18,434 nt of DNA from a bacterium (lineage in GTDB: Bacteria; Electryoneota; RPQS01): contig JADLDM010000116.1 of the NCBI GenBank assembly GCA_020846695.1, positions 1 to 18,434 of the forward strand, in the 5' to 3' direction. A program made the position numbers and the translations under genes. Shown here piece after piece: positions 1,901-18,174 of this stretch; the stretch's first letter is position 1; the number at the start of each line of letters is the position of its first letter. The notes below the pieces were generated by a model. That model saw nothing but the letters and a program-made list of their open reading frames with translations, had not been told where the DNA came from and searched no databases.

Positions 1901-2512
1901 ATGCACCACTTTCCTCATAATACGGGTTGGATAGAAGTGATTTGCGGGCCGATGTTCTCGGGGAAGACCGAGGAATTGATCCGCAGATTGGTGCGCGCGC
2001 AAATTGCGAAATTGAAAGTCGAAATTTTCAAGCCGCGAATTGATGCGCGCTATGCCAAAGATGAAATCGTCAGCCACTCGCGCCTGACTATTCCTTCGCA
2101 GCTTGTGGATTCCGCATGGGAAATCTATGAGCATGCGCAGGACGCGCAGGTTATCGGCGTGGATGAAGCGCAGTTTCTCGGACCCGAGATTGTGGACGTT
2201 GTGCAGAAGCTCGCGGATTCTGGCAAGCGCGTGATTTGCGCGGGACTCGATACGGACTATCGCGGCATCCCCTTCGATCCGATTCCGCAGCTTCTCGCCG
2301 TTGCGGAATATATTGATAAGACTTTGGCAATTTGCGTGCGCTGCGGGAATCCAGCAAAACACACGCAGCGCGTCGTCGCGTCGCGCGATCTTGTTTTAGT
2401 CGGCGCGTATGATGCGTACGAACCGCGCTGCCGCAATTGCTTCGTGCCTCCCGAACCCCTTCCCGACACTCCATCACAGGAACAGCTTCCACTCACTTCT
2501 TCGAAAGGCTGA
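1901..2512 (+). CDS. tdk: Thymidine kinase
   Basis: It has the P-loop [14 protein letters not shown], the VDEAQF motif and a C-terminal zinc-ribbon CxxC...CxxC (CVRCGNPA...CRNC). It has a short proline-rich C-terminal extension. Confidence 0.93.
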
Positions 2513-2515
2513 GAC

Positions 2516-3766
2516 TTGGAAAGACTACAATCCTTACTTGCGATTCCAATCTTAATTGGAATTGCCTTCCTGCTTTCGTCCGACCGAAAAAACTTCCCGT
2601 GGCGCGCCGTGATTTGGGGCGTCGGTCTGCAAATCACCTTTGCAATTCTGATTCTCTGGACGCCGTGGGGCCGCGAACTCTTTTCCAAAGCAGGTGATCT
2701 CGTCACGCGCTTCTTAGGTTTCGCAACCGAAGGCTCGCAATTCCTCTTCGGCAATATCGTCAACCCGGAATATCAGAACACCTTCGGATTTCAATTCGCC
2801 TTCGCAATCCTGCCGACGATTATCTTCTTCGGTGCGTTCATGGGCGTGATGTATCACTTCGGAATTGTGCAACGAGTGGTGAAGGGTCTCGCATGGGTGA
2901 TGACGAAAACCATGCGCACGTCCGGTGCGGAGTCTCTCTCCTGCGCGGGAAATATTTTTCTCGGTCAGACCGAAGCGCCGCTCTTAGTGCGTCCCTTCTT
3001 GAAGACGATGACGCGCAGCGAATTGAACGCGGTGATGGTGGGAGGATTTGGAACCGTTGCCGGCGGCGTGATGGCGGGATATATTCTGCTTGGTGTCCCT
3101 GCGAAACATCTGCTCGCAGCTTCCGTCATGGCCGCGCCGGGAAGTTTGTTGTTTGCAAAAATATTTCTGCCGGAACGCGAGAAGGCTGACACGGCAGGCT
3201 CACTGCACATGCCGGAGATGCCGAAACAGGCCAACGTGATTGACGCCGCTGCCGCCGGAACGCGCGACGGTTTGGGTCTTGCCGTGAATGTCGGCGCAAT
3301 GCTCTTAACGTTCATCGCATTAATCGCGGTTGTCAATGCAGGGCTTGCGTTGATCGCGGGTTGGCTTGCAAACGGAGGAATTGCGTGGTTCCCCGAGAGT
3401 CTTCGAGAGATATTTTCCTACGTGCTATGGCCGATAGGATTCATTCTCGGCGTGCCGATTGCGGAGTGTAAGGAGTTTGCCTATCTCGTTGGAACAAAAA
3501 TCTCGATCAACGAGTTCGTCGCCTACGTCGAACTCTCCGACATGATCAAGAACAACTTGATTTCACCGCGCACCATCATGATCGCAAGCTACGCGCTTTG
3601 CGGCTTTGCGAATTTCTCTTCGATTGGAATTCAGATCGGCGGGATCGGCAGTCTTGCTCCCGAGCGGCGATCCGAACTTGCGCAGCTTGGCTTGAAGGCG
3701 ATGATTGCCGGAGCAATGGTCTCATTGCAAACTTCCGCCATCGCGGGACTGCTTGCCACAGAATAG
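2516..3766 (+). CDS. nupC: Concentrative nucleoside transporter, NupC/CNT family
   Basis: It is a 416-aa polytopic membrane protein. It aligns with E. coli NupC across the N-terminal (LLSSDRK...), central (NAVMVGGFGTVAGGVMAGY) and C-terminal (SYALCGFANFSSIGIQIGGIG) conserved blocks. It starts at a TTG codon 4 nt after the tdk stop, which suggests translational coupling. Confidence 0.88.
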   Translation: MERLQSLLAIPILIGIAFLLSSDRKNFPWRAVIWGVGLQITFAILILWTPWGRELFSKAGDLVTRFLGFATEGSQFLFGNIVNPEYQNTFGFQFAFAILPTIIFFGAFMGVMYHFGIVQRVVKGLAWVMTKTMRTSGAESLSCAGNIFLGQTEAPLLVRPFLKTMTRSELNAVMVGGFGTVAGGVMAGYILLGVPAKHLLAASVMAAPGSLLFAKIFLPEREKADTAGSLHMPEMPKQANVIDAAAAGTRDGLGLAVNVGAMLLTFIALIAVVNAGLALIAGWLANGGIAWFPESLREIFSYVLWPIGFILGVPIAECKEFAYLVGTKISINEFVAYVELSDMIKNNLISPRTIMIASYALCGFANFSSIGIQIGGIGSLAPERRSELAQLGLKAMIAGAMVSLQTSAIAGLLATE

Positions 3767-3768
3767 AA

Positions 3769-3790
3769 AAGCCCCGACGATTCAGGGCTT
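3769..3790. terminator. Intrinsic terminator hairpin between the convergent nupC and SulP genes. It mainly serves the minus-strand gene.
   Basis: The hairpin is aagccc-cgacgattca-gggctt. On the minus strand it is followed by TTTTCTATTC. On the plus strand only a weak U-tract follows. Confidence 0.6.
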
Positions 3791-3816
3791 CTCAATTCTA
3801 ACTTCTGACATTTGAT

Positions 3817-5493
3817 TTAGGAAGTCTTCCGCGCCTTCTCTGCAAGAATTTGATTTGCTCGCGCAAGCGCGTCGTCAAATGTCAACAAGACATTTTCACG
3901 ACCGAATTCATCAAGCAGCCCGGCTTTCTCCAAAGCATCCATGGGCTGCTTGTTGACTCCGGACAGAAGCATCACCGAATGCTTCTTCCTCGCCGCAGTG
4001 AAAACTTCCTGCAACGCGTGCATGCCCGAGCTGTCAATCACCGGCACCTTTCTCATGCGAATGATGCGCACCTTCGGTTGCTTTGAAACCACGTTCATCG
4101 CCTCGCGGAATTTATACACGGCTCCAAAGAAGAACGGCCCGTTGATCTCATAGACCTGCACACCGTTGGGAATCTGAGTTCTGTCGAGCACGTCGCCCTC
4201 TTCATCTTCCGAAGGCTCGCGAAACTCCGAAGTGATCTCTTCAACGTCGGTCGCGGCGGCCATGCGCTTCATGAACAGAAACGCGGCCATCACCATGCCC
4301 ACTTCAATCGCCACGGTGAGGTCCACGACGACGGTGAGAAACAGCGTGGTCAGCAAGATTGCCACGTCGCTCTTTGGGCTCTTCAACATGGCGGTGAACG
4401 AGCGCCACTCAAACATGTTGTAGGCGACAACCACGAGAATCGCGGAGAGCGCGGCAAGCGGAATCATCGCGGCAAAACGAGCAAACGCAAGCATCATCAC
4501 GAGCAACGTTAGCGCGTGGACGATTCCCGCAACCGGAGTTCTTCCGCCGCTTCGCGCATTGGTTGCCGTTCTGGCTATCGCACCGGTCACAGGCAATCCG
4601 CCAAAGATCGAACTGCCGATGTTGGCGACGCCTTGGCCGATCAATTCCATGTTTGAGCGATGTCGTCCTCCCACCATACCGTCTGCGACGACTGCCGACA
4701 GAAGCGACTCGATCGCAACCAGTAGCGCGATCGTAATCGAGGGCTGCACGAGTCTGCGAATCTGATCAAACGTCAAATCAGGAATCTGCGGAGTGGGGAG
4801 GAAGGAAGGAATTTCTCCAAATCGAGAGCCGATGGTTTCGACAGGCAATTTCAATAGCGCCGCTGCAACCGTAGCTCCGACCAGCACGACAAACGGCCCG
4901 GGAATCACGCGCGACACCTTCCGCCACGTGATCAAAACGAAGACCGATGCACCCGCGATAATCAAAGCGGAAGGATTTACGGTTCCGAGCGAAACGGTAA
5001 GCGCACCGATCTTCTCCATAAAATTCGCGCTCGCGGATTCCATTTTCAATCCGAGGAAATCCTGCACCTGCGAAACGAAGATAATGAGTGCGATACCGCT
5101 CGTGAATCCTGCGATCACCGGCTGCGGAATGAACTTGATGACCGATCCGAGTTTCAGCCTGCCGAATACGATCAAAAGAATACCCGCGAGAAACGTCGAG
5201 ACAATCAATCCGTCGAGTCCGTATTCAGCGATAATACCGAAGACAATGACGACGAACGCTCCCGCCGGACCTCCGATCTGAACGCGGCTTCCGCCGAGGA
5301 GCGAAACAAGAAATCCCCCCACAACTCCGGCAACCAATCCCTTTTCGGGCGACACACCCGACGCAATCGCGAAAGCAATGCAGAGAGGCAATGCGACGAT
5401 GCCGACAATGATGCCCGCGACGGCATCCCGCGCGAACAACTTGCGATTATAGGTCTTGAGTGCGGTGAATAGTTTGGGCTTGAGCATGAACAA
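3817..5493 (-). CDS. SulP-family anion transporter with a C-terminal STAS domain (DauA/BicA-like)
   Basis: The 558-aa protein is collinear with E. coli DauA (ARDAVAGIIVGIVALPLCIAFAIASGVSPEKGL...GGSR...GPAGAF). Its C-terminal roughly 130 aa form a STAS-like domain (INGPFFFGAV...). Confidence 0.88.
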   Translation of the reverse strand: MFMLKPKLFTALKTYNRKLFARDAVAGIIVGIVALPLCIAFAIASGVSPEKGLVAGVVGGFLVSLLGGSRVQIGGPAGAFVVIVFGIIAEYGLDGLIVSTFLAGILLIVFGRLKLGSVIKFIPQPVIAGFTSGIALIIFVSQVQDFLGLKMESASANFMEKIGALTVSLGTVNPSALIIAGASVFVLITWRKVSRVIPGPFVVLVGATVAAALLKLPVETIGSRFGEIPSFLPTPQIPDLTFDQIRRLVQPSITIALLVAIESLLSAVVADGMVGGRHRSNMELIGQGVANIGSSIFGGLPVTGAIARTATNARSGGRTPVAGIVHALTLLVMMLAFARFAAMIPLAALSAILVVVAYNMFEWRSFTAMLKSPKSDVAILLTTLFLTVVVDLTVAIEVGMVMAAFLFMKRMAAATDVEEITSEFREPSEDEEGDVLDRTQIPNGVQVYEINGPFFFGAVYKFREAMNVVSKQPKVRIIRMRKVPVIDSSGMHALQEVFTAARKKHSVMLLSGVNKQPMDALEKAGLLDEFGRENVLLTFDDALARANQILAEKARKTS

Positions 5494-6040
5494 ATATAGT
5501 CTGACTTCTCAAAATAATCAAGCGCTTCGCGCGCTTGCGCTGAGTTTTTTGTTGGCGCTGCTGCTGTCGTGTCGTCACAGCGCGACCACGACCATTCTCC
5601 CCTATCGGGAAACGCAAGTCGAGAAGTCGGACATCGAAGTCGAGGACGGCGATACCTTTAACTGGCGCAATCAGCCCGTGCGCATGTTGGGAATTGACTG
5701 TCCCGAAACAAAATCACCTCATCATTCCGGCGATCAGGAACCTTGGGGCGGACGTGCGCGTGAATACCTTGAAGCGCAAGTCGCCGCCGCGAAGTCGCTT
5801 TCGATTATCCGCACGGACAAACCTGATCGCTACGGCCGCTGGTTGGGCTATCTGCTGGCCGACGGCGAGAACGTCAACGCGAAAATCATCGGTCAAGGCC
5901 TGGCCTACGAAACAATTTCTAAGTACGGGAAGCAGAAGCTCGACAAATACGCCGAGGAAGTTCTGAAAGCGGCGCGCAACGCTCCCAAACCACAGTTTGA
6001 AAATCCCTCCGACTTCCGCAAACGCAACCGCAAAGAATGA
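5486..6040 (+). CDS. Secreted thermonuclease (staphylococcal nuclease/SNase family) lipoprotein
   Basis: The SNase core is present: VEDGDTF...VRMLGIDCPE. The N-terminus carries a signal peptide with an LLSC lipobox. The start is chosen at the ATG at 5486. The six-frame ORF begins at 5456. Confidence 0.8.
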   Translation: MNKYSLTSQNNQALRALALSFLLALLLSCRHSATTTILPYRETQVEKSDIEVEDGDTFNWRNQPVRMLGIDCPETKSPHHSGDQEPWGGRAREYLEAQVAAAKSLSIIRTDKPDRYGRWLGYLLADGENVNAKIIGQGLAYETISKYGKQKLDKYAEEVLKAARNAPKPQFENPSDFRKRNRKE

Positions 6041-6888
6041 ACATGACTCCGCAGCACGCTCGCATTCGAGTGAATGAGCAAGAAGTGAATATTGAAGCCA
6101 TCGCCAAACTGATTCCCGGCGAAGCGGACGTCGCGATTATCTTGGGAAGCGGACTGGGTCCCTTCGCGGATTCGCTCGAAAATGCGAAGAGTGTGAACAC
6201 GTCGAATTTGCCCGGCTATCCGGTTTCCACCGTGCAAGGTCACTCAGGCAAGATTGTGATGGGCGCCGTCGGCAAGACCCGCGTCATGGCCTTTCAGGGT
6301 CGCGTGCATCAATACGAAGGCTACTCGCCCGAGCAGGTTGTGGTTCCCGTTCGTCTTGCACATGCCAAAGGCGCAACAAAATTGATCGTAACAAATGCAT
6401 CGGGCGCGTTCACGAAGAGATTTCACGCAGGCGATCTGCTATTGATTGAAGATCACATCAATTTGCAATTCAGGAATCCTCTGCGTGGCCCCGTAGCAAG
6501 CGGTGAATCGCGCTGGCCGGACATGTGCAACTGCTACGATCCTGACTTGAAGACACTTGCGGAGAAAGTTGCGCTCGAATTGATAATCCCCTTGAAGCGC
6601 GGCGTGTTGGGCGCCGTGCTCGGACCCTCGTATGAGACTCCCGCAGAAGTTCGCATGTTGTCGCGTCTCGGAGCCGATGCGGGCTGCATGTCCACCGTTC
6701 CCGAAGTTATCACCGCCGCGGCTCTTGGCATGAAAGTCCTGGGCATCTCCTGCGTAACTAATTCCGGCTCGGGCATCTCCGATGTTAAGTTATCACACGA
6801 GGACGTGCAGGACGTTGCGAACTCCGCGGCCGAACATTTCTCAATGCTGATTCGCGGAATACTGACAAACATGAGCACTGAACAGTGA
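6037..6888 (+). CDS. punA: Purine nucleoside phosphorylase of the trimeric PNP-I/PunA type
   Basis: The 283-aa protein has the phosphate-binding motif ILGSGLG. The conserved blocks VTNASGA, GPSYETPAEVRML and MSTVPEV are present. Its start overlaps the thermonuclease stop (ATGA). Confidence 0.85.
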   Translation: MNMTPQHARIRVNEQEVNIEAIAKLIPGEADVAIILGSGLGPFADSLENAKSVNTSNLPGYPVSTVQGHSGKIVMGAVGKTRVMAFQGRVHQYEGYSPEQVVVPVRLAHAKGATKLIVTNASGAFTKRFHAGDLLLIEDHINLQFRNPLRGPVASGESRWPDMCNCYDPDLKTLAEKVALELIIPLKRGVLGAVLGPSYETPAEVRMLSRLGADAGCMSTVPEVITAAALGMKVLGISCVTNSGSGISDVKLSHEDVQDVANSAAEHFSMLIRGILTNMSTEQ

Positions 6889-8600
6889 GATTCTTAGCCA
6901 AAGTTGTATCTATCGTTGCCGGACTTCTTCTTGCTCAGTCTATGTTGGCGCAAACTTCGTTTGCGCCCGGCGATTGGACATCATGGCGCGATTTCCGCGG
7001 AGCGCGCTCGATGGACGCAGGTGGGCACGATCTATTCGTTGCAACCGCCGGCGGAATCTTGAGTTACGATTTGGATCGCCGGCGTTGGTTGGATCCGCAA
7101 GTCATGGGCTATGGCTCGGGTCAGGCCGTCCCGATAGATGATCCGCTCCTTGTCCTCTACGATGAAGAGACCGATTACCTTTGGGTCGCGACGTATGAAA
7201 ATCTGCTTCGCTATCAACGCGGTATGGAGAAGTGGGACATCGTGCGCGCGTTTCCGTGGCCTGCCGGACATCGTCCTGTGAATATCGGTGCCGGTGGACG
7301 CAGTCTGTTTGTTGAGACGATTCCTATTCAGGTTTTCGAGGAGATCTTTGCCCCCGGAAACCCGATTCCCGATCCGCTGTGGACGCAATACGTGACGCGT
7401 TACAGCGGCGACCGCTATCTGGGCAATTTGATGCTCGCGTCACCGACCGATCCCGTTCCGACAGATACGCGCTGGCGAGGATTGGTGACAAAGATTCCGC
7501 TGGATCATGCGCGTCCTCCTGCGGGTTTTCCGATTATCTTTCCTCCATTGCCCTTTGAGTGGATGCCCGAAGGCACGCTCTACGATCAGCGCAATCGCGC
7601 CTATCCGATTACCGATTGGCTCACCGATCGCTGGAGCTATTTCTGGACGACGCATTGGGGCGCAGGGGTTATGCGCACGGATTTGCGCAGCGGTCGCGGC
7701 GAGCTGCAAATGACAGGCCCTGCAGGAAACGACATTCGCGCGATGCTCTTGACGAAGGACTCGACGTGGATGGGCGGCGAGAACGACGGCGACTTCGAGG
7801 GAATCAGCGTTGCCGATCGCGACATGCTGGAGTGGAGCTATTTCAGTCGTCGTGATGATCAGCAGATTCGTTCCACTTCCGTGAATGACTTCGCCGAAAC
7901 CTCGACAAGAATTTTCGTCGCAACTTCGGACGGTTTGCTTGCGTATACGCCGAAGAGCAAGAGTTGGAAGCGCTACGACGTGCAGGACGGACTGCATTCA
8001 CAGCAGGTCAATGCGCTTGTCGTAACGCATGGCAAGCTCTGGATCGGAACAAGTGATGGACTTGCGGTGATGGATTTGCAGACCAACATCATCACGCGCA
8101 TTCCGCAGCAAGGTTTTCTGCTCTCCGGCATTCGCGATCTCGCCGCCGATGGAACACAAATCTGGGTCGGCACGCAAGGCGGGCTCGCTTCAGTTTCTGT
8201 CACTACACACGAAGTGTCCGTGCAGGCTCTCGATCCCGGTTTGATTAATCTTCCCGTTGTCTCTGTTTCGCTCTTTGGTTCAGAGTTGTGGCTTGCAACG
8301 GAGCAGGGCGTGATGCATCGCTCATCGAATGGCGATACCGAGAGTTGGCTTTCCGATGTCTGGCTCAAGGAATCCGAGCCACAGTGTATTCTCGCGTCCG
8401 ATCCCTATATTTGGGTCGGCACAGACAACGGACTCTGGCGGCACAATGTCGCAACAAACGAGTGGATTTCCTATTCACGCTCCGATGGTCTCGTGGATAA
8501 CCGCGTCTATTGCATCGAAGAAGACGGCGGCGATCTCTTGATCGGCACGGCTTCCGGCCTCACGCGCTTCTCTTGGAATCGCCCCGGCGCAGCACGATAA
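6885..8600 (+). CDS. Secreted beta-propeller protein carrying two-component-regulator-propeller (Reg_prop-like) repeats. It has no kinase or other output domain.
   Basis: It starts at a GTG that overlaps the PNP stop. A signal peptide is present (MRFLAKVVSIVAGLLLAQSMLAQ). The motif aromatic-hydrophobic-G-T-x-x-G-L recurs more than six times (LWIGTSDGLAV, IWVGTQGGLAS, LWLATEQGVMH, IWVGTDNGLWR, LLIGTASGLTR, IFVATSDGLLA). Confidence 0.7.
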   Translation: MRFLAKVVSIVAGLLLAQSMLAQTSFAPGDWTSWRDFRGARSMDAGGHDLFVATAGGILSYDLDRRRWLDPQVMGYGSGQAVPIDDPLLVLYDEETDYLWVATYENLLRYQRGMEKWDIVRAFPWPAGHRPVNIGAGGRSLFVETIPIQVFEEIFAPGNPIPDPLWTQYVTRYSGDRYLGNLMLASPTDPVPTDTRWRGLVTKIPLDHARPPAGFPIIFPPLPFEWMPEGTLYDQRNRAYPITDWLTDRWSYFWTTHWGAGVMRTDLRSGRGELQMTGPAGNDIRAMLLTKDSTWMGGENDGDFEGISVADRDMLEWSYFSRRDDQQIRSTSVNDFAETSTRIFVATSDGLLAYTPKSKSWKRYDVQDGLHSQQVNALVVTHGKLWIGTSDGLAVMDLQTNIITRIPQQGFLLSGIRDLAADGTQIWVGTQGGLASVSVTTHEVSVQALDPGLINLPVVSVSLFGSELWLATEQGVMHRSSNGDTESWLSDVWLKESEPQCILASDPYIWVGTDNGLWRHNVATNEWISYSRSDGLVDNRVYCIEEDGGDLLIGTASGLTRFSWNRPGAAR

Positions 8601-8743: not shown

Positions 8744-9004
8744 ATGTTCTCTCCCGTTCACGCAGGCACATTTTATCTCAGCAGGAAAGACCTCGATGAA
8801 GGTCGCTCAGTCAAAGTTTGGTACATGGCGGATGGCATCAAGCGCGGCTGGCATTGCACCCCCGTCACCGCAGGCAAGGAAGACGAGCACGGCTATCCGC
8901 TGAGTCCCGATCTTTGGGACTACCTCTATACGGAGGAAGAACTCCGAGCAGGCAAAGATACGCGCCGGGAACTTTCCCGCGAGCATTCAGGTTATACCAA
9001 GTAG
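8744..9004 (+). CDS. Small hypothetical protein of 86 aa
   Basis: The internal ATG of ORF 8510..9004 lies beyond the end of the upstream gene. The codons have high GC3, which suggests coding. The sequence is MFSPVHAGTFYLSRKDLDEGRSVKVWYMADGIKRGWHCTPVT... I do not recognise a family. Confidence 0.35.
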   Translation: MFSPVHAGTFYLSRKDLDEGRSVKVWYMADGIKRGWHCTPVTAGKEDEHGYPLSPDLWDYLYTEEELRAGKDTRRELSREHSGYTK

Positions 9005-9495
9005 ATAGGAAGAGTGAAAGCGTCTCGGGGTTCGCATTCTGCCGATTGCATTGCCCTTTGCGGGCATTGTTGAATAGCTCGACACGTTCGCAGACCATGT
9101 AGCCACAGCGACGCGCATTTCTTCCTCCTCATTGGCCCGGGAATCGCGCGTTGCGTTTCTGCGGGCCTTCTGCTTTTTGAAACGCAGCGTCTCAGCCCAA
9201 TTCATCAATCCTAAATCATAACTCATCATTTAACAGAATCTTACAGCGTCCGCGCGAAGGCTGGCCTCTCGCCTCCCCCCGTAGGCTCCCAAAATGCAAG
9301 AGGATGCGTAGTACTGGATGGCGCTTGCGGCAAAGAATTTGCTGAATATTAATTAGGCTTACACGCGACGCTCATGTTGCGGCTGCCAAACAACCCAAAA
9401 CCGCGAGAAAGATGCCTTGCGTCTCATGAACCGGTTACCTAAATTGAGCAGTAGCATGTCTTTCGCCAAATGGCGACAGTTGAATTGAGGACCTT

Positions 9496-11949
9496 ATGCA
9501 AAACAAATTCTCCCTTCGCGTTCAACAAGTGATTCAGTACTCCCGGGAGGAGGCGCTCCGGCTTGGGCACGACTTCATCGGCACAGAACACCTGCTCTTG
9601 GGAATCATTCGCTTGGGAGATGGTCTTGCAGTGCAGATACTTCACAACCTCGGATGTGAACTGGATGAGTTGCGCGAATCCGTGGAAGAGATGGTGGATA
9701 CCTCGCGCGGCACGATGAAGATCGGGAATATCCCTTTCACCAAGCGCGCCGAAAAAGTCCTCAAGCTCTCATATATTGAAGGTAAGAGTTACTCGTCGGA
9801 CATCATCGGAACCGAGCATCTGCTGCTCGCGCTGCTCAAGGAAGAAGATTCGATGGCCGCGCAGGTGCTGCACGGCTTCAATGTCACCTACGAAAACGTC
9901 AAGACGGAGCTGGACAATCTGCTTCGCGGCTCGGGCCAGCAAGCGCCTGCCGCGCCTGCGGAAAAGACCAAGACTCCCAATCTCGATCACTTCTCTCGCG
10001 ATCTCACCAAGCTTGGGCGTGAAAACAAACTCGATCCGATTATCGGACGCGACAAGGAAATCGAGCGCGTCGCTCAGATTCTCTCGCGCCGCAAGAAGAA
10101 TAACCCCGTTTTGATTGGCGAGCCGGGCGTCGGTAAGACCGCCATCGCCGAAGGTCTCGCTCTGCGCATCGTGCAGCAGCGCGTCTCGCCGATTCTTTTC
10201 GGCAAGCGTGTCGTCGCTCTCGACTTGGGCTCGATTGTAGCAGGCACGAAATATCGCGGACAGTTCGAAGAGCGCATCAAGTCTATCATGACCGAGATTG
10301 AAAAGAATCCCGACATTATTCTTTTCATTGACGAATTGCACACCATCGTCGGAGCCGGAAGCGCGTCCGGCTCGCTCGATGCCTCAAACATGTTTAAGCC
10401 CGCATTGGCTCGCGGTGAACTCCAATGCATCGGCGCGACCACGCTGAATGAATATCGTCAGTCCATCGAAAAGGATGGAGCGCTGGAACGCCGATTCCAA
10501 AAAGTTATGGTGGATCCGCCGTCCGTCGAGGATTCCATTCAGATTCTCATGGGCCTTCGCGAAAAATATGAAGAGCATCACGGCGTGAAATTCAGTGACG
10601 AAGCGATTGAGGCCGCCGTGCGCTTCGCAGATCGCTACATCACGGATCGTTTTCTCCCAGATAAGGCTATTGACGTGATTGACGAAACCGGATCAAGCGT
10701 CCGCATTTCGCACATCGTCATTCCCGAGCGCATCATCGAAATCGAAAAGCAGATCGAAAATGTGCGCCACGAAAAGGAAGACCTGGTCAAGCGGCAGGAA
10801 TATGAAAAGGCCGCCATGCTGCGCGACAAAAAGGTCAAGCTCGAAACCATGCTCCGCGAAGAGAAAGAGCGCTGGGAGCGCTCCGAAGCGCGTCCCACTC
10901 TCGTCGTGACCCCTGAAGAAATCGCCAACACGGTTTCGCGTATGACCGGCATTCCCGTGCAGCGCGTTGCGTCAGGCGAAGGCGAACGTCTCCTGAAGAT
11001 CGGCGAATCGCTCGGCAAAAAAATTCTCGGACAAAAGGAAGCGATCGAGACGATTGCGAAAGCGCTTCGTCGCGCGCGTTCAGGGTTGAAGAGCCCCACG
11101 CGTCCGATTGGAAGCTTCATGTTCCTCGGAACTCCCGGTGTCGGTAAGACCGAACTCGCGCACGTGCTCGCGGAATATCTTTTTAATGATCCTGAAGCGC
11201 TCATCCGCATTGACATGAGCGAGTATAGCGAGAAGTTCAACGTCTCACGTCTGATCGGCGCGCCTCCCGGCTATGTCGGCTATGATGAAGGCGGACAGCT
11301 CACGGAAAAAGTGCGACGCAAACCCTACAGCGTTGTGCTGCTTGACGAAGTCGAAAAAGCTCACCCCGACGTCTTCAACGTGCTGCTTCAGGTTCTTGAT
11401 CACGGAGAACTCACTGACGGAACGGGACAGAAAGTTGATTTCAAGAACACAATCTTGATCCTGACGTCAAACCTCGGAACTCGCGAAGCTGCAAAGTCTT
11501 TGGATTTCGGTTTCGGCGGAGCGAAAGCTGAAACGCATGACAAGATTTCCGGAAAGATGATGGAAGAGGTTAAGCGCGCGTTCCGACCTGAGTTTCTGAA
11601 TCGCTTGGATGAGATCGTCGTCTTCAACATGCTCACGCGTGAAGCGATTGAAGAAATTCTCAACAAGTATGTTGATGAAATCAACAAGCGTCTTGTGGAT
11701 CGCGGCTTGACCGTTCAGTTGACTGCGAAGGCCCGTGATTATCTTGTGGATAAGGGCTTCAAACCTGAAGTCGGCGCGCGTTTGATGCGTCGCACGGTCG
11801 AAAAATACGTCGAGGATCCGCTCGCGGAAGAAATTCTCCGCGACCGCTTCCATGAAGGCTCCTCGATTCAAGTCACTTTGAAGAACGAAGAACTCTCCTT
11901 CCGCGAGTTCAAGGAAAAGGTCCCCGAAGAATCCGCCGAAACCGAATAA
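9496..11949 (+). CDS. clpC: ATP-dependent Clp protease ATP-binding subunit ClpC (class III HSP100)
   Basis: Two N-terminal Clp_N repeats are present. AAA+ module 1 carries Walker [15 protein letters not shown]-like middle motif follows ([31 protein letters not shown]). AAA+ module 2 carries [11 protein letters not shown], and a C-terminal D2-small domain is present. The protein is 817 aa. Confidence 0.95.
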
Positions 11950-16878: not shown

Positions 16879-18174
16879 CTATCTCACCACCGCCATCTTC
16901 TTCTGCATCATCTTCTCTCCCGCCTGCAATCTGTAGAAATAAATCCCCGAAGAAAGCTCTCCCGCATCAAAATTCACGCGATGCACTCCCGCGCTCATCA
17001 CACCACTTGAAAGCGTCGCCACCTCTTCACCCAACAGATTGTGCAGCGTGAGCGTGACGTCGGAAACTTCCGGCAGCAGAAACTCAATCGTCGTGGACGC
17101 ATTAAACGGATTCGGATAGTTCTGCAAGAGCATAAACTCCGAAGGCACTTCATTCGCGCGCGGCGTGGCGGAAACCTGCCCAACCTGCTCGCGCGATCCG
17201 TCCAAGTCCACCGATGTCAGCGTGTAAACATACTCGCGCCCGTTTTCAAGAGCCTCATCTCGCCACTGATATCTATTCCCCGTCGCCCGGTTCGTCGCCT
17301 GAACATTCGCCACCACCGCGCCATCCCGCTCAATCTCAAAGTGGCTCATCTCACTCTCCGCCCCCGTCACCCACGACAAAACAACGCTCTCATCTCGTGC
17401 AATCGCAGAGAAGGAGAGTAGCTCAACGGGCAAAGACGCGTCGGAGCATATCCATTGTGGATTGTTGATCGTTGAGCCATGAATCGCATTTGAGGAAGCG
17501 TCATGCACCGTTGAGCCGTTCGATTCATCGAAATGATAGAGAAGCACAGTATTCTCGTCTGGAATGAATTTTTCGTTTGGAGGATTGAAGTTAGTTAAGT
17601 ATCGTGCGACAGCCGAGATTCGAAATTCGTCGATAATTGCCGAAAGTCGTTCGCTCTCCCCTCCGGTCCATGCGTGATGGTTCAAATAGGCGCCACTGAC
17701 GACATTGCCAACTGTGCCACTAATCGACATGGGTGTAGATGCAGCAAGTTCACCGTCAATAAACAGTGTGACAAATGAGCCATCCCAGACGCCTGCGATG
17801 TGATGCCATTCATTCAATGTAAGATCGTGTGGCCAATCAGCCCAATAACCCTCGATATCGCTCTGATGGAACCCGAAGGTAAGGTGTGCTCCATTCCAAT
17901 CACAGCACGAATTCGACACAAATAGTTGAATCGTGCCTGCATCATACACGCTGTTGCTCTTATTAAAGATGTTCTCTTCATAGCAAGGCACTGGGGCAAG
18001 TTGTTTGAACCAGCACTCAACAGTGATCTGACTGAATTCGCTCAGCTCAGGTGAATTTGGTATGGTGACATAGTTGCCTGTCCAGCACTCACCAGTGAAC
18101 CTGAGGGCGTTTCCGCCGGGGCACTGCGCCCACACACTCCCGCACACGATCACCAAAGCAATCACGAGTTTCAT
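16879..18174 (-). CDS. T9SS-sorted secreted protein carrying an N-terminal LamG/concanavalin-A-like lectin domain
   Basis: It has a signal peptide (MKLVIALVIVCGSVWAQ) and a roughly 200-aa domain with LamG-like features (WHHIAGVWDGSFVTLFIDGEL). The C-terminal roughly 80 aa are typical of the Por secretion-system C-terminal sorting domain (LLQNYPNPFNASTTIEF...GIYFYRLQAGE...KKMAVVR). Confidence 0.8.
   Translation of the reverse strand: MKLVIALVIVCGSVWAQCPGGNALRFTGECWTGNYVTIPNSPELSEFSQITVECWFKQLAPVPCYEENIFNKSNSVYDAGTIQLFVSNSCCDWNGAHLTFGFHQSDIEGYWADWPHDLTLNEWHHIAGVWDGSFVTLFIDGELAASTPMSISGTVGNVVSGAYLNHHAWTGGESERLSAIIDEFRISAVARYLTNFNPPNEKFIPDENTVLLYHFDESNGSTVHDASSNAIHGSTINNPQWICSDASLPVELLSFSAIARDESVVLSWVTGAESEMSHFEIERDGAVVANVQATNRATGNRYQWRDEALENGREYVYTLTSVDLDGSREQVGQVSATPRANEVPSEFMLLQNYPNPFNASTTIEFLLPEVSDVTLTLHNLLGEEVATLSSGVMSAGVHRVNFDAGELSSGIYFYRLQAGEKMMQKKMAVVR

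Follow-up and report, generated by a model that had tools for sequence, protein, structure and literature searches.

Does a nuclease gene that abuts a gene of nucleoside salvage take part in that salvage? The question is raised by a locus in contig JADLDM010000116.1 (assembly GCA_020846695.1; 18,434 nucleotides, analysed whole and here called the window) from a bacterium of the candidate phylum Electryoneota, for which a preliminary description had proposed one linked gene set that degrades extracellular nucleic acid and imports and salvages the nucleosides. The five genes that it named, for thymidine kinase (TK), a NupC-type importer, a staphylococcal-type nuclease (SNase), a purine nucleoside phosphorylase (PNP) and a beta-propeller protein, are all present where it placed them, according to the open reading frame (ORF) listing and Pfam and NCBIfam searches. 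We find that the salvage cluster is ordinary and that the attachment of the SNase to it is a rare, clade-specific, selected feature. That the SNase feeds nucleic-acid breakdown products into nucleoside salvage is a reading to which we give an even chance. The argument turns on the following features:

1901–2512, + strand: tdk, TK1-like thymidine kinase, 203 aa (PF00265, NF003296).
2516–3766, + strand: nupC, CNT-family nucleoside:cation symporter, 416 aa (Nucleos_tra2_N, Gate and Nucleos_tra2_C domains).
3766–3793, no strand assigned: hairpin, a probable bidirectional intrinsic terminator (terminator scan and folding energy).
3817–5487/5493, − strand: SulP-family anion transporter with STAS domain (DauA/BicA-like), 556–558 aa (PF00916, PF01740).
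5493–5521, − strand: sigma70-type SulP promoter, TTGATT-17-TATATT (promoter scan and comparison of relatives).
5486–6040, + strand: SNase-type lipoprotein nuclease, 184 aa (PF00565).
6043 (conserved ATG) or 6037 to 6888, + strand: PNP, trimeric inosine/guanosine type (NF006054, TIGR01697).
6885–8600, + strand: secreted tandem beta-propeller protein, 571 aa, with Sec signal peptide (PF07494 Reg_prop repeats).

The nuclease looks like an active, lipid-anchored enzyme of the SNase family. It scores 61.1 bits against PF00565 (cut-off 21) and matches the Staphylococcus aureus nuclease in PDB with a phmmer E-value of 1e-12 at 25–31% identity. All of the SNase residues align: D56, R66, D71, E74, R118 and Y116 correspond to D21, R35, D40, E43, R87 and Y85 of the S. 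aureus enzyme, and C72 aligns to T41, a backbone position. The catalytic and calcium-binding residues are invariant among 18 homologues, which bears out the earlier assignment of the protein as a nuclease. Its AlphaFold2 model (pLDDT 90.3) retrieved only S. aureus nuclease among the top 50 Foldseek matches (TMt 0.66–0.76, the leading ones 0.70–0.76; root-mean-square deviation 2.6–3.6 Å for 49 of them and 6.1 Å for one). The gene's dN/dS is 0.06–0.15 where dS was calculable, similar to that of PNP (0.10–0.21). From family, residues and fold we infer both the cutting activity and its products.

The signal peptide MNKYSLTSQNNQALRALALSFLLALLLS, followed by C, fits the lipobox rule: by inspection there is K3 in the n-region, an uncharged h-region LSFLLA, and then L-L-S-C29, so that LLS-C with Cys29 leaves a mature part of about 155 aa. 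The lipobox cysteine is present in 17 of the 18 homologues. The prediction of a lipoprotein thus holds, and the extracellular placement that went with it is unproven: a lipoprotein of a diderm may face the periplasm. This bears on a first alternative, in which the nuclease is an outer- or inner-membrane lipoprotein on the periplasmic side. Its substrates would be DNA or RNA already brought into the periplasm, for instance through a competence-type pilus, or nucleic acid that the cell itself has leaked or turned over, and it would so serve recycling and not foraging. Consistent with this, the mature protein begins C-R-H-S directly after the lipobox, with acidic residues absent; the Pfam scan found no type IX secretion system (T9SS) C-terminal domain on it, though the genome uses T9SS sorting domains elsewhere; and it is a small single-domain enzyme without the DNA-capture or lamin-tail domains of dedicated secreted nucleases (PMC8289736). 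However, the window encodes no uptake machinery, and the alternative differs from the foraging reading in location alone. We consider it unlikely.

Two segments of the nuclease that are absent from the S. aureus enzyme are conserved among its homologues. The mature N-terminus C-R-H-S/G (residues 29–32, window positions 5570–5585) is almost invariant and is a candidate sorting signal; the C-terminal tail FE.P..FR.RNRK (residues 171–184, 5990–6037) is basic and may bind nucleic acid.

The salvage genes beside it were assigned from profile scores. The tdk product scores 176.7 bits against PF00265 and 251.2 bits against the NF003296 equivalog (cut-off 183), and it carries the P-loop GPMFSGKT plus two cysteine pairs, CVRCG and CRNCF. 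NupC exceeds the cut-offs of all three CNT Pfam domains and falls marginally under that of TIGR00804 (436, cut-off 442). PNP scores 316.3 bits against NF006054 (cut-off 218) and 284.3 against TIGR01697 (cut-off 197.1); the columns that are invariant in 37 sequences include S38, R89, H91, Y93, E94, E200, M218, S219, T241, N242 and H254, which we take to match the active-site residues of human PNP, Asn243 among them. With the families assigned from these profile searches and the enzymology from established knowledge, we regard it as secure that NupC imports nucleosides, that pyrimidine nucleosides are trapped as nucleotides by TK, joined in relatives by Udk and Cdd, and that the Asn-type trimeric PNP converts inosine or guanosine to a base and (deoxy)ribose-1-phosphate.

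For comparison we use three sets of loci: twelve that form a clade with the window and carry the SNase (L001–L012), two distant SNase loci (L013 and L014), and six more distant PNP-cluster loci (L015–L020) recovered through PNP homologues of 55–68% identity. The junction between SNase and PNP is tight. The SNase TGA (6038–6040) is contained in ATGA (6037–6040), and the PNP start that is conserved among relatives is the second ATG, at 6043, 2 nt past the SNase stop. The overlap of stop and start that had been described therefore exists (as 4 nt) only if PNP begins at the alternative ATG, 6037; the conserved start gives a 2-nt spacer, and the junction is tight under either. The 281-aa PNP is the version recorded at NCBI, and an exact-sequence database lookup of the window's 283-aa ORF returned no match. 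The SNase stop lies 2–4 nt ahead of the PNP ATG in the window, L001, L003, L005, L008, L009 and L012. The SNase itself starts at ATG 5486, giving a 184-aa product identical to an NCBI protein (P0001); a TTG at 5456 is ruled out as its start, as it lies 38 nt into SulP coding sequence and the NCBI protein and homologues begin at or after ATG 5486. The two remaining junctions are as they had been described. The PNP TGA (6886–6888) lies inside a GTGA that also carries the propeller start (6885), and the tdk TGA ends at 2512, 3 nt before the nupC TTG at 2516. That TTG start is strongly supported because the same TTG, 3 nt past the tdk stop, is found in all of the SNase-clade relatives (the string 'stop + 3 nt + TTG GAA CG' is kept throughout L001–L012).

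The five genes do not, however, form the one linked unit that had been proposed. The SulP gene (3817–5487), 1.7 kb on the minus strand and a quarter of the interval, parts tdk-nupC from SNase-PNP-propeller, and within the 50-nt gap between the convergent ends of nupC and SulP the terminator scan found the hairpin at 3766–3793; the preliminary description had mentioned neither. The hairpin has a 12-bp stem and folds with −15.5 kcal/mol (z −3.2) on the plus strand and with −22.9 kcal/mol (z −4.9) on the minus strand, where it is followed by UUUUCUAUUCU. The opposite-strand gene and the terminator hairpin therefore imply at least two plus-strand units, tdk-nupC (possibly preceded by a 206-aa ORF) and SNase-PNP-propeller, and a single operon from tdk through the propeller gene is ruled out by them. 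We infer that SNase and PNP, plus in the window the propeller gene, lie on one mRNA apart from tdk-nupC. Scanning and inspection 5′ of 5486 gave no convincing sigma70-type or Bacteroidota-type match for a SNase-PNP promoter.

The start of the SNase gene is unusually placed with respect to SulP. The SulP ATG (− strand, 5487–5485) and the SNase ATG (+ strand, 5486–5488) share the palindrome CATG, with zero intergenic DNA between the two genes. The CATG is invariant in five aligned relatives (L001, L003, L005, L008 and L009), where its plus-strand ATG is in the SNase frame and the length of the N-region varies. A SulP promoter motif, TTGnnn-17-TAT(A/C)TT, ends 5–8 nt before the SulP ATG in the window (5 nt), L002, L003, L005, L008 and L009, and this arrangement predicts a leaderless SulP mRNA with its promoter within the nuclease signal-peptide codons. 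Since the motif also occurs in sister-clade L018, which lacks the SNase (TTGCGA-17-TAAATT, 7 nt before the SulP ATG), it would be older than the SNase gain. In the window the promoter lies inside SNase codons 3–12, and there it is the DNA motif that is conserved and not the protein sequence. SulP scores 290 bits against PF00916 and 60 bits against PF01740, and falls under the cut-offs of the NCBIfam DauA, sulP and BicA models; no role for it in nucleoside metabolism is evident.

How far is this arrangement shared? The SNase orthologue group is small: 22 proteins were found among 5.8 billion, and five GTDB species representatives. All 12 SNase-clade loci have the order tdk-nupC-<SulP-SNase-PNP-(23S_rRNA_IVP)-propeller-87aa-(LTD/DUF4876)-clpC, where LTD is a lamin-tail domain, and udk lies upstream wherever the contig extends far enough. 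ClpC is 90–94% identical across these loci, and that order alone could be inherited; synonymous sites are saturated between most pairs. TK identity is 82–88% in these loci and 65–78% in the more distant ones.

The six more distant loci all lack the SNase. Three of them also lack SulP: L019 (ClpC 74% identical) has cdd-udk-tdk-nupC-PNP-propeller on a single strand, L020 has tdk-IVP-nupC-(5 nt)-PNP-propeller, and L015 has cdd-udk-...-tdk-IVP-nupC-PNP-propeller. The other three have SulP in the same place as in the SNase clade, followed by a different gene 5′ of PNP in each: a 114-aa two-helix membrane protein in L017 (9664–10008), a 208-aa thymidylate-kinase-like protein in L018 (9345–9971; sub-threshold for Thymidylate_kin, at 21 bits with a cut-off of 27), and a 409-aa Mrr-like protein in L016 (8729–9958; at the Mrr_cat threshold). 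These slot genes are not diverged SNases, as BLASTP found no similarity and Pfam gave weak Thymidylate_kin or Mrr_cat matches or none. A paralogue of L017's membrane protein lies between tdk and nupC in L016.

Because the same order is found in 12 close loci and in six distant loci without the SNase, we take the gene order to be beyond chance; tdk-nupC-PNP-propeller, often with cdd-udk ahead, is kept down to 74% ClpC identity. In a neighbour-joining tree of TK, PNP and NupC all SNase loci group together, and the window is the first of them to branch off; this monophyly points to a single gain of the SNase. The co-conservation in relatives that had been expected of the whole set is thus found for tdk, nupC, PNP and the propeller gene in sister lineages, and for the SNase only within one narrow clade. 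Scanning metagenome contigs with a PNP profile gave 80 diverse PNP loci of 42–53% identity (many of the contigs are short, so the neighbour counts are lower bounds). By tblastn, at least 33 of the 80 have cdd near PNP, 13 udk, 8 nupC and 3 tdk, and PNP is on this account a regular member of salvage clusters. This agrees with the salvage role given earlier to tdk, nupC and PNP, which in relatives are joined by cdd and udk in the same orientation. A hidden Markov model built from the SNase alignment found no match in any of the 80 loci, and L013 and L014 have no nucleoside genes near their SNase genes; a widespread SNase-PNP linkage is thereby ruled out. The earlier remark that such a linkage is unusual stands as far as rarity goes (0/80 other PNP loci), and its further statement that this is no standard locus type does not, given the precedents (PMC3585158, PMC8289736) to which we return below.

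These counts also bear on a second alternative, in which the co-localisation is inherited gene order only, a cdd-to-clpC block that is collinear in the lineage and carries no functional information. The block also holds the propeller gene, the 87-aa ORF, the LTD/DUF4876 gene, mcsAB and clpC, none of which is linked to nucleosides, and tdk-nupC and SNase-PNP are separate transcription units, all of which would fit. But in many unrelated lineages that lack the rest of the block, PNP still has cdd, udk, nupC or tdk as a neighbour, and so the linkage of salvage genes has recurred independently. As a full account, mere inheritance seems to us very unlikely; it is weakened for the salvage genes and remains the default for the propeller gene and clpC.

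The variable slot 5′ of PNP supplies a third alternative, that the SNase is incidental cargo in an insertion-prone place between SulP and PNP, with a purpose unrelated to salvage. Possible roles would be remodelling of an extracellular-DNA biofilm matrix, limitation of DNA uptake or degradation of foreign nucleic acid, and the tight SNase-PNP junction would be mere use of PNP's transcription context. Several observations fit cargo: in sister lineages the slot is empty or occupied by various unrelated genes; the cluster has repeatedly taken up toxin-antitoxin modules and 23S_rRNA_IVP genes; L012 has an acyltransferase-like ORF between SulP and SNase; the SNase has a weak 30-bit PADLOC match to a candidate 'SNc+LTD' defence model; and biofilm and immune-evasion roles are documented for SNase-family nucleases. 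Yet the 2–4-nt junction has been retained in the clade despite saturated synonymous divergence, which counts for a functional link, no defence gene is adjacent and the PADLOC match spans the generic nuclease domain only, and nucleoside genes on both sides are the simplest functional context for the enzyme. Cargo is in our view a possible but rather unlikely explanation. Its specific form in which the SNase is part of a defence system is rejected, as that lone match is joined only by unrelated HepT/MNT genes 3.5 kb off as defence neighbours. The L012 ORF (8832–10535) is acyltransferase-3-like, and in the SNase of that locus the reading frame is broken in two, through a frameshift or an error in the long-read assembly.

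Under the salvage reading, the ancestral core would have been (cdd-udk-)tdk-nupC-PNP on one strand, with the propeller gene and a variable slot 5′ of PNP. Within the FCB superphylum, the ancestor of one small clade would then have gained a single SNase lipoprotein gene in that slot, beside the opposite-strand SulP, and the gene would have been held 2–4 nt from the PNP start ever since. The lipid-anchored nuclease would cut DNA or RNA at the envelope to 3′-nucleotides and short oligonucleotides, a phosphatase encoded elsewhere in the genome would strip the phosphate, and NupC would bring in the nucleosides, which TK and PNP would pass to nucleotide pools. SNase-type enzymes yield 3′-nucleotides, and NupC takes these up only after dephosphorylation. 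The direct chain from degradation to import that had been drawn before therefore stands for its importer and breaks at this step, as NupC cannot import 3′-nucleotides and the window encodes no nucleotidase or phosphatase. What the genome comparison suggests is a link between the nuclease and nucleoside nutrition.

Several points weigh against this reading. No nucleotidase or phosphatase domain was found by Pfam in the large ORFs of the 18.4-kb window, nor one in the called genes of related loci, although the enzyme may be encoded elsewhere in the genome. E. coli-type NupC favours pyrimidine nucleosides, whereas this PNP is presumably 6-oxopurine-specific by its Asn, and so the two need not share substrates. 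The SulP gene and terminator hairpin split tdk-nupC from SNase-PNP, so that the components are not one co-directional unit, and we found no evidence of the shared regulation that coordination of the two would need. The mature SNase lacks the acidic surface-export signal of the Bacteroidota type and may face the periplasm. The slot 5′ of PNP holds unrelated genes or nothing in sister lineages, the region also gathers toxin-antitoxin and 23S_rRNA_IVP genes, to which the SNase could be one more addition, and the distant SNase genes of L013 and L014, both from GTDB genomes, lack nucleoside genes in their vicinity.

The propeller protein had been counted as part of the nucleic-acid set, and its structure does not support that. 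Its AlphaFold2 model (pLDDT 91.1) shows a tandem beta-propeller behind a signal-peptide helix, and the best Foldseek matches are the periplasmic sensor domains BT4663, BT4673 and BT3049 of Bacteroides hybrid two-component systems, which bind ligands; there is also a partial likeness to PorZ (5m11, TMq 0.57). The second propeller closes the protein, and Pfam found no Y_Y_Y, HisKA, HATPase or receiver domain, so it is a stand-alone propeller protein and not a hybrid two-component sensor. It is not the T9SS protein PorZ either (NF052228 36 bits, cut-off 260; Por_Secre_tail not matched), and a role as phosphatase or nuclease (e.g. PhoX-like) is unsupported, the best structures being ligand-binding sensor propellers, PorZ and generic WD40. 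Neither the Pfam nor the Foldseek comparison ties it to nucleic acids. Its orthologues, about 30, are all lineage-restricted, and the gene adjoins PNP in all related loci except L016, with the 4-nt overlap in the window and L017 and a gap of 47–247 nt or an inserted IVP gene elsewhere. One could go further and see SNase-PNP-propeller as a dedicated envelope module for nucleic-acid foraging, the propeller being the missing envelope partner that captures nucleic acid or nucleotides or replaces the nucleotidase step, and expression being wired reciprocally to SulP via the head-to-head arrangement. If so, an uncultured FCB lineage abundant in activated-sludge metagenome-assembled genomes (MAGs) would have a dedicated foraging module, but we regard this extension as highly improbable.

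The rest of the window holds the following:

203–544, 567–902 and 811–1233, + strand: HepT, MNT and HepT toxin-antitoxin genes (Pfam HepT-like and NTP_transf_2; PADLOC PDC-S09 for MNT).
1271–1891, + strand: ORF of 206 aa, ending 9 nt 5′ of tdk.
8744–9004, + strand: small conserved ORF, 86–87 aa, 52–55% identical to the 87-aa genes of L001–L012.
9496–11949, after the propeller gene and the small ORF: clpC (ORF listing, Pfam/NCBIfam).
3′ of clpC: genes for MarR, an NADP oxidoreductase, a Dabb protein, an SPFH protein, a beta-lactamase-fold protein and a T9SS-sorted lectin-like protein.
16879–18174, − strand: the last of these, a Laminin_G_3 lectin-like protein with a T9SS C-terminal sorting domain.

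Upstream of tdk, MNT/HepT pairs lie between udk and tdk in L005, L009, L015 and L016, and the window's cluster (203–1233) is in the matching place; the udk-tdk gap looks like a recurrent toxin-antitoxin insertion site. The ORF at 1271–1891 has no match in Pfam, NCBIfam or PADLOC, and a partial homologue lies 5′ of tdk in L008. Since it ends 9 nt before the tdk ATG, tdk-nupC may share its transcript; both it and the HepT/MNT genes lie outside the salvage function. A run of nine C (1892–1900) abuts the tdk ATG, with no Shine-Dalgarno sequence there, and C-rich stretches, though shorter, also stand ahead of tdk in several relatives. An Rfam scan of the window found no family at gathering score, which gives no support to a riboswitch or other RNA element controlling the locus, and a tRNA scan found none.

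Genes for 23S_rRNA_IVP proteins (four-helix bundles) have been inserted repeatedly in relatives, in the tdk/nupC or PNP/propeller gaps and often with 4-nt overlaps (L003 11377–11745; L005 11388–11660; L015 8092–8454; L018 2416–2808 and 10795–11187; L020 2785–3147); the window has none. Between the 87-aa ORF and clpC, a gene for a lamin-tail-domain/DUF4876 protein is found in L001 (13645–14706), L005 (13759–14919) and L019 (12792–13310), and is missing from the window (9005–9495) and from L003. Lamin-tail domains go with secreted nucleases in Izemoplasma loci (PMC8289736), and one is likewise part of the PADLOC 'SNc+LTD' model. The small ORF at 8744–9004 has homologues confined to the SNase clade and no match in the Pfam scan; a 164-aa ORF listed from 8510 is probably an over-extension of it. 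In L015 and L017–L020, mcsA and mcsB (UVR and ATP-gua_Ptrans domains) lie directly 5′ of clpC, whereas the SNase clade, the window included, has no mcsA or mcsB at clpC (9496–11949) and has the 87-aa ORF in that place. The T9SS sorting domain on the Laminin_G_3 protein confirms type IX secretion in the organism and fits an origin in the FCB superphylum.

If the salvage reading is true, a salvage cluster has been extended outward through the capture of a single nuclease gene, and a small clade within an uncultured candidate phylum, for which activated-sludge and sediment MAGs are the main source, is a nucleic-acid scavenger. This would offer a concrete hypothesis for wastewater systems, where extracellular DNA is plentiful, and a searchable signature, namely a lipoprotein SNase joined into a PNP operon beside tdk-nupC. 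In the literature on AABM5-125-24 / Electryoneota we found no mention of nucleases.

Set against known systems, the cluster resembles the classical nucleoside operons, such as dra-nupC-pdp of B. subtilis and deoCABD of E. coli, in grouping a nucleoside transporter with phosphorylase, kinase and deaminase genes. A nuclease is absent from those operons, and here deoC and deoB are lacking, so that the cluster looks like salvage and not sugar catabolism. The nuclease shares its fold and catalytic residues with the thermonuclease of S. aureus (Nuc/NucA), but it is lipid-anchored, not secreted, has the conserved basic tail EFRKRNRKE and the C-R-H-S N-terminus, and scores far below the cut-offs of the equivalog models NucI (46, cut-off 250) and EcnA (40, cut-off 180). 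In Vibrio cholerae, extracellular DNA is used through the nucleases Dns and Xds, then UshA/CpdB/PhoX, then NupC (PMC4714964), the same succession of nuclease, nucleotidase and NupC-type importer that is proposed here; there, however, the genes are dispersed, the nucleases are of other families (EndA-like Dns and Xds) and the nucleotidase step is demonstrated, whereas no nucleotidase gene lies in our window. Comparable too are the 'DNA-degradation loci' of Izemoplasmatales, in which nuclease genes lie beside genes for processing and import of DNA breakdown products and which were read as coordinated extracellular-DNA foraging (PMC8289736). They hold several secreted nucleases, phosphohydrolases, ABC and phosphate transporters and a large lamin-tail nuclease, in contrast to the one small lipoprotein nuclease and the salvage enzymes TK and PNP here, with no phosphohydrolase or phosphate transporter.

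A further precedent comes from mycoplasmas, in which (MAG_5040 of M. agalactiae; mhp379 of M. hyopneumoniae) a clade-conserved SNase (TNASE_3) lipoprotein likewise lies in an operon with genes for acquisition of nucleic-acid precursors (PMC3585158). MAG_5040 is a surface lipoprotein co-transcribed with an ABC transporter, an arrangement conserved in the M. hominis group and read as precursor acquisition (PMC3585158). These hosts are wall-less monoderm Mollicutes without de novo nucleotide synthesis, and their nuclease of about 390 aa has an ABC importer as its operon partner, whereas in our diderm bacterium of the FCB group the nuclease is 184 aa, its partner is the cytoplasmic PNP, and the importer, a CNT protein (NupC), belongs to a neighbouring operon. 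The enzyme, the pathway logic and the kind of locus are therefore not new, and the five proteins are ordinary members of their families; what is new relative to the precedents is the host, a diderm of an FCB-group candidate phylum, PNP as the operon partner, and the minimal content of the locus.

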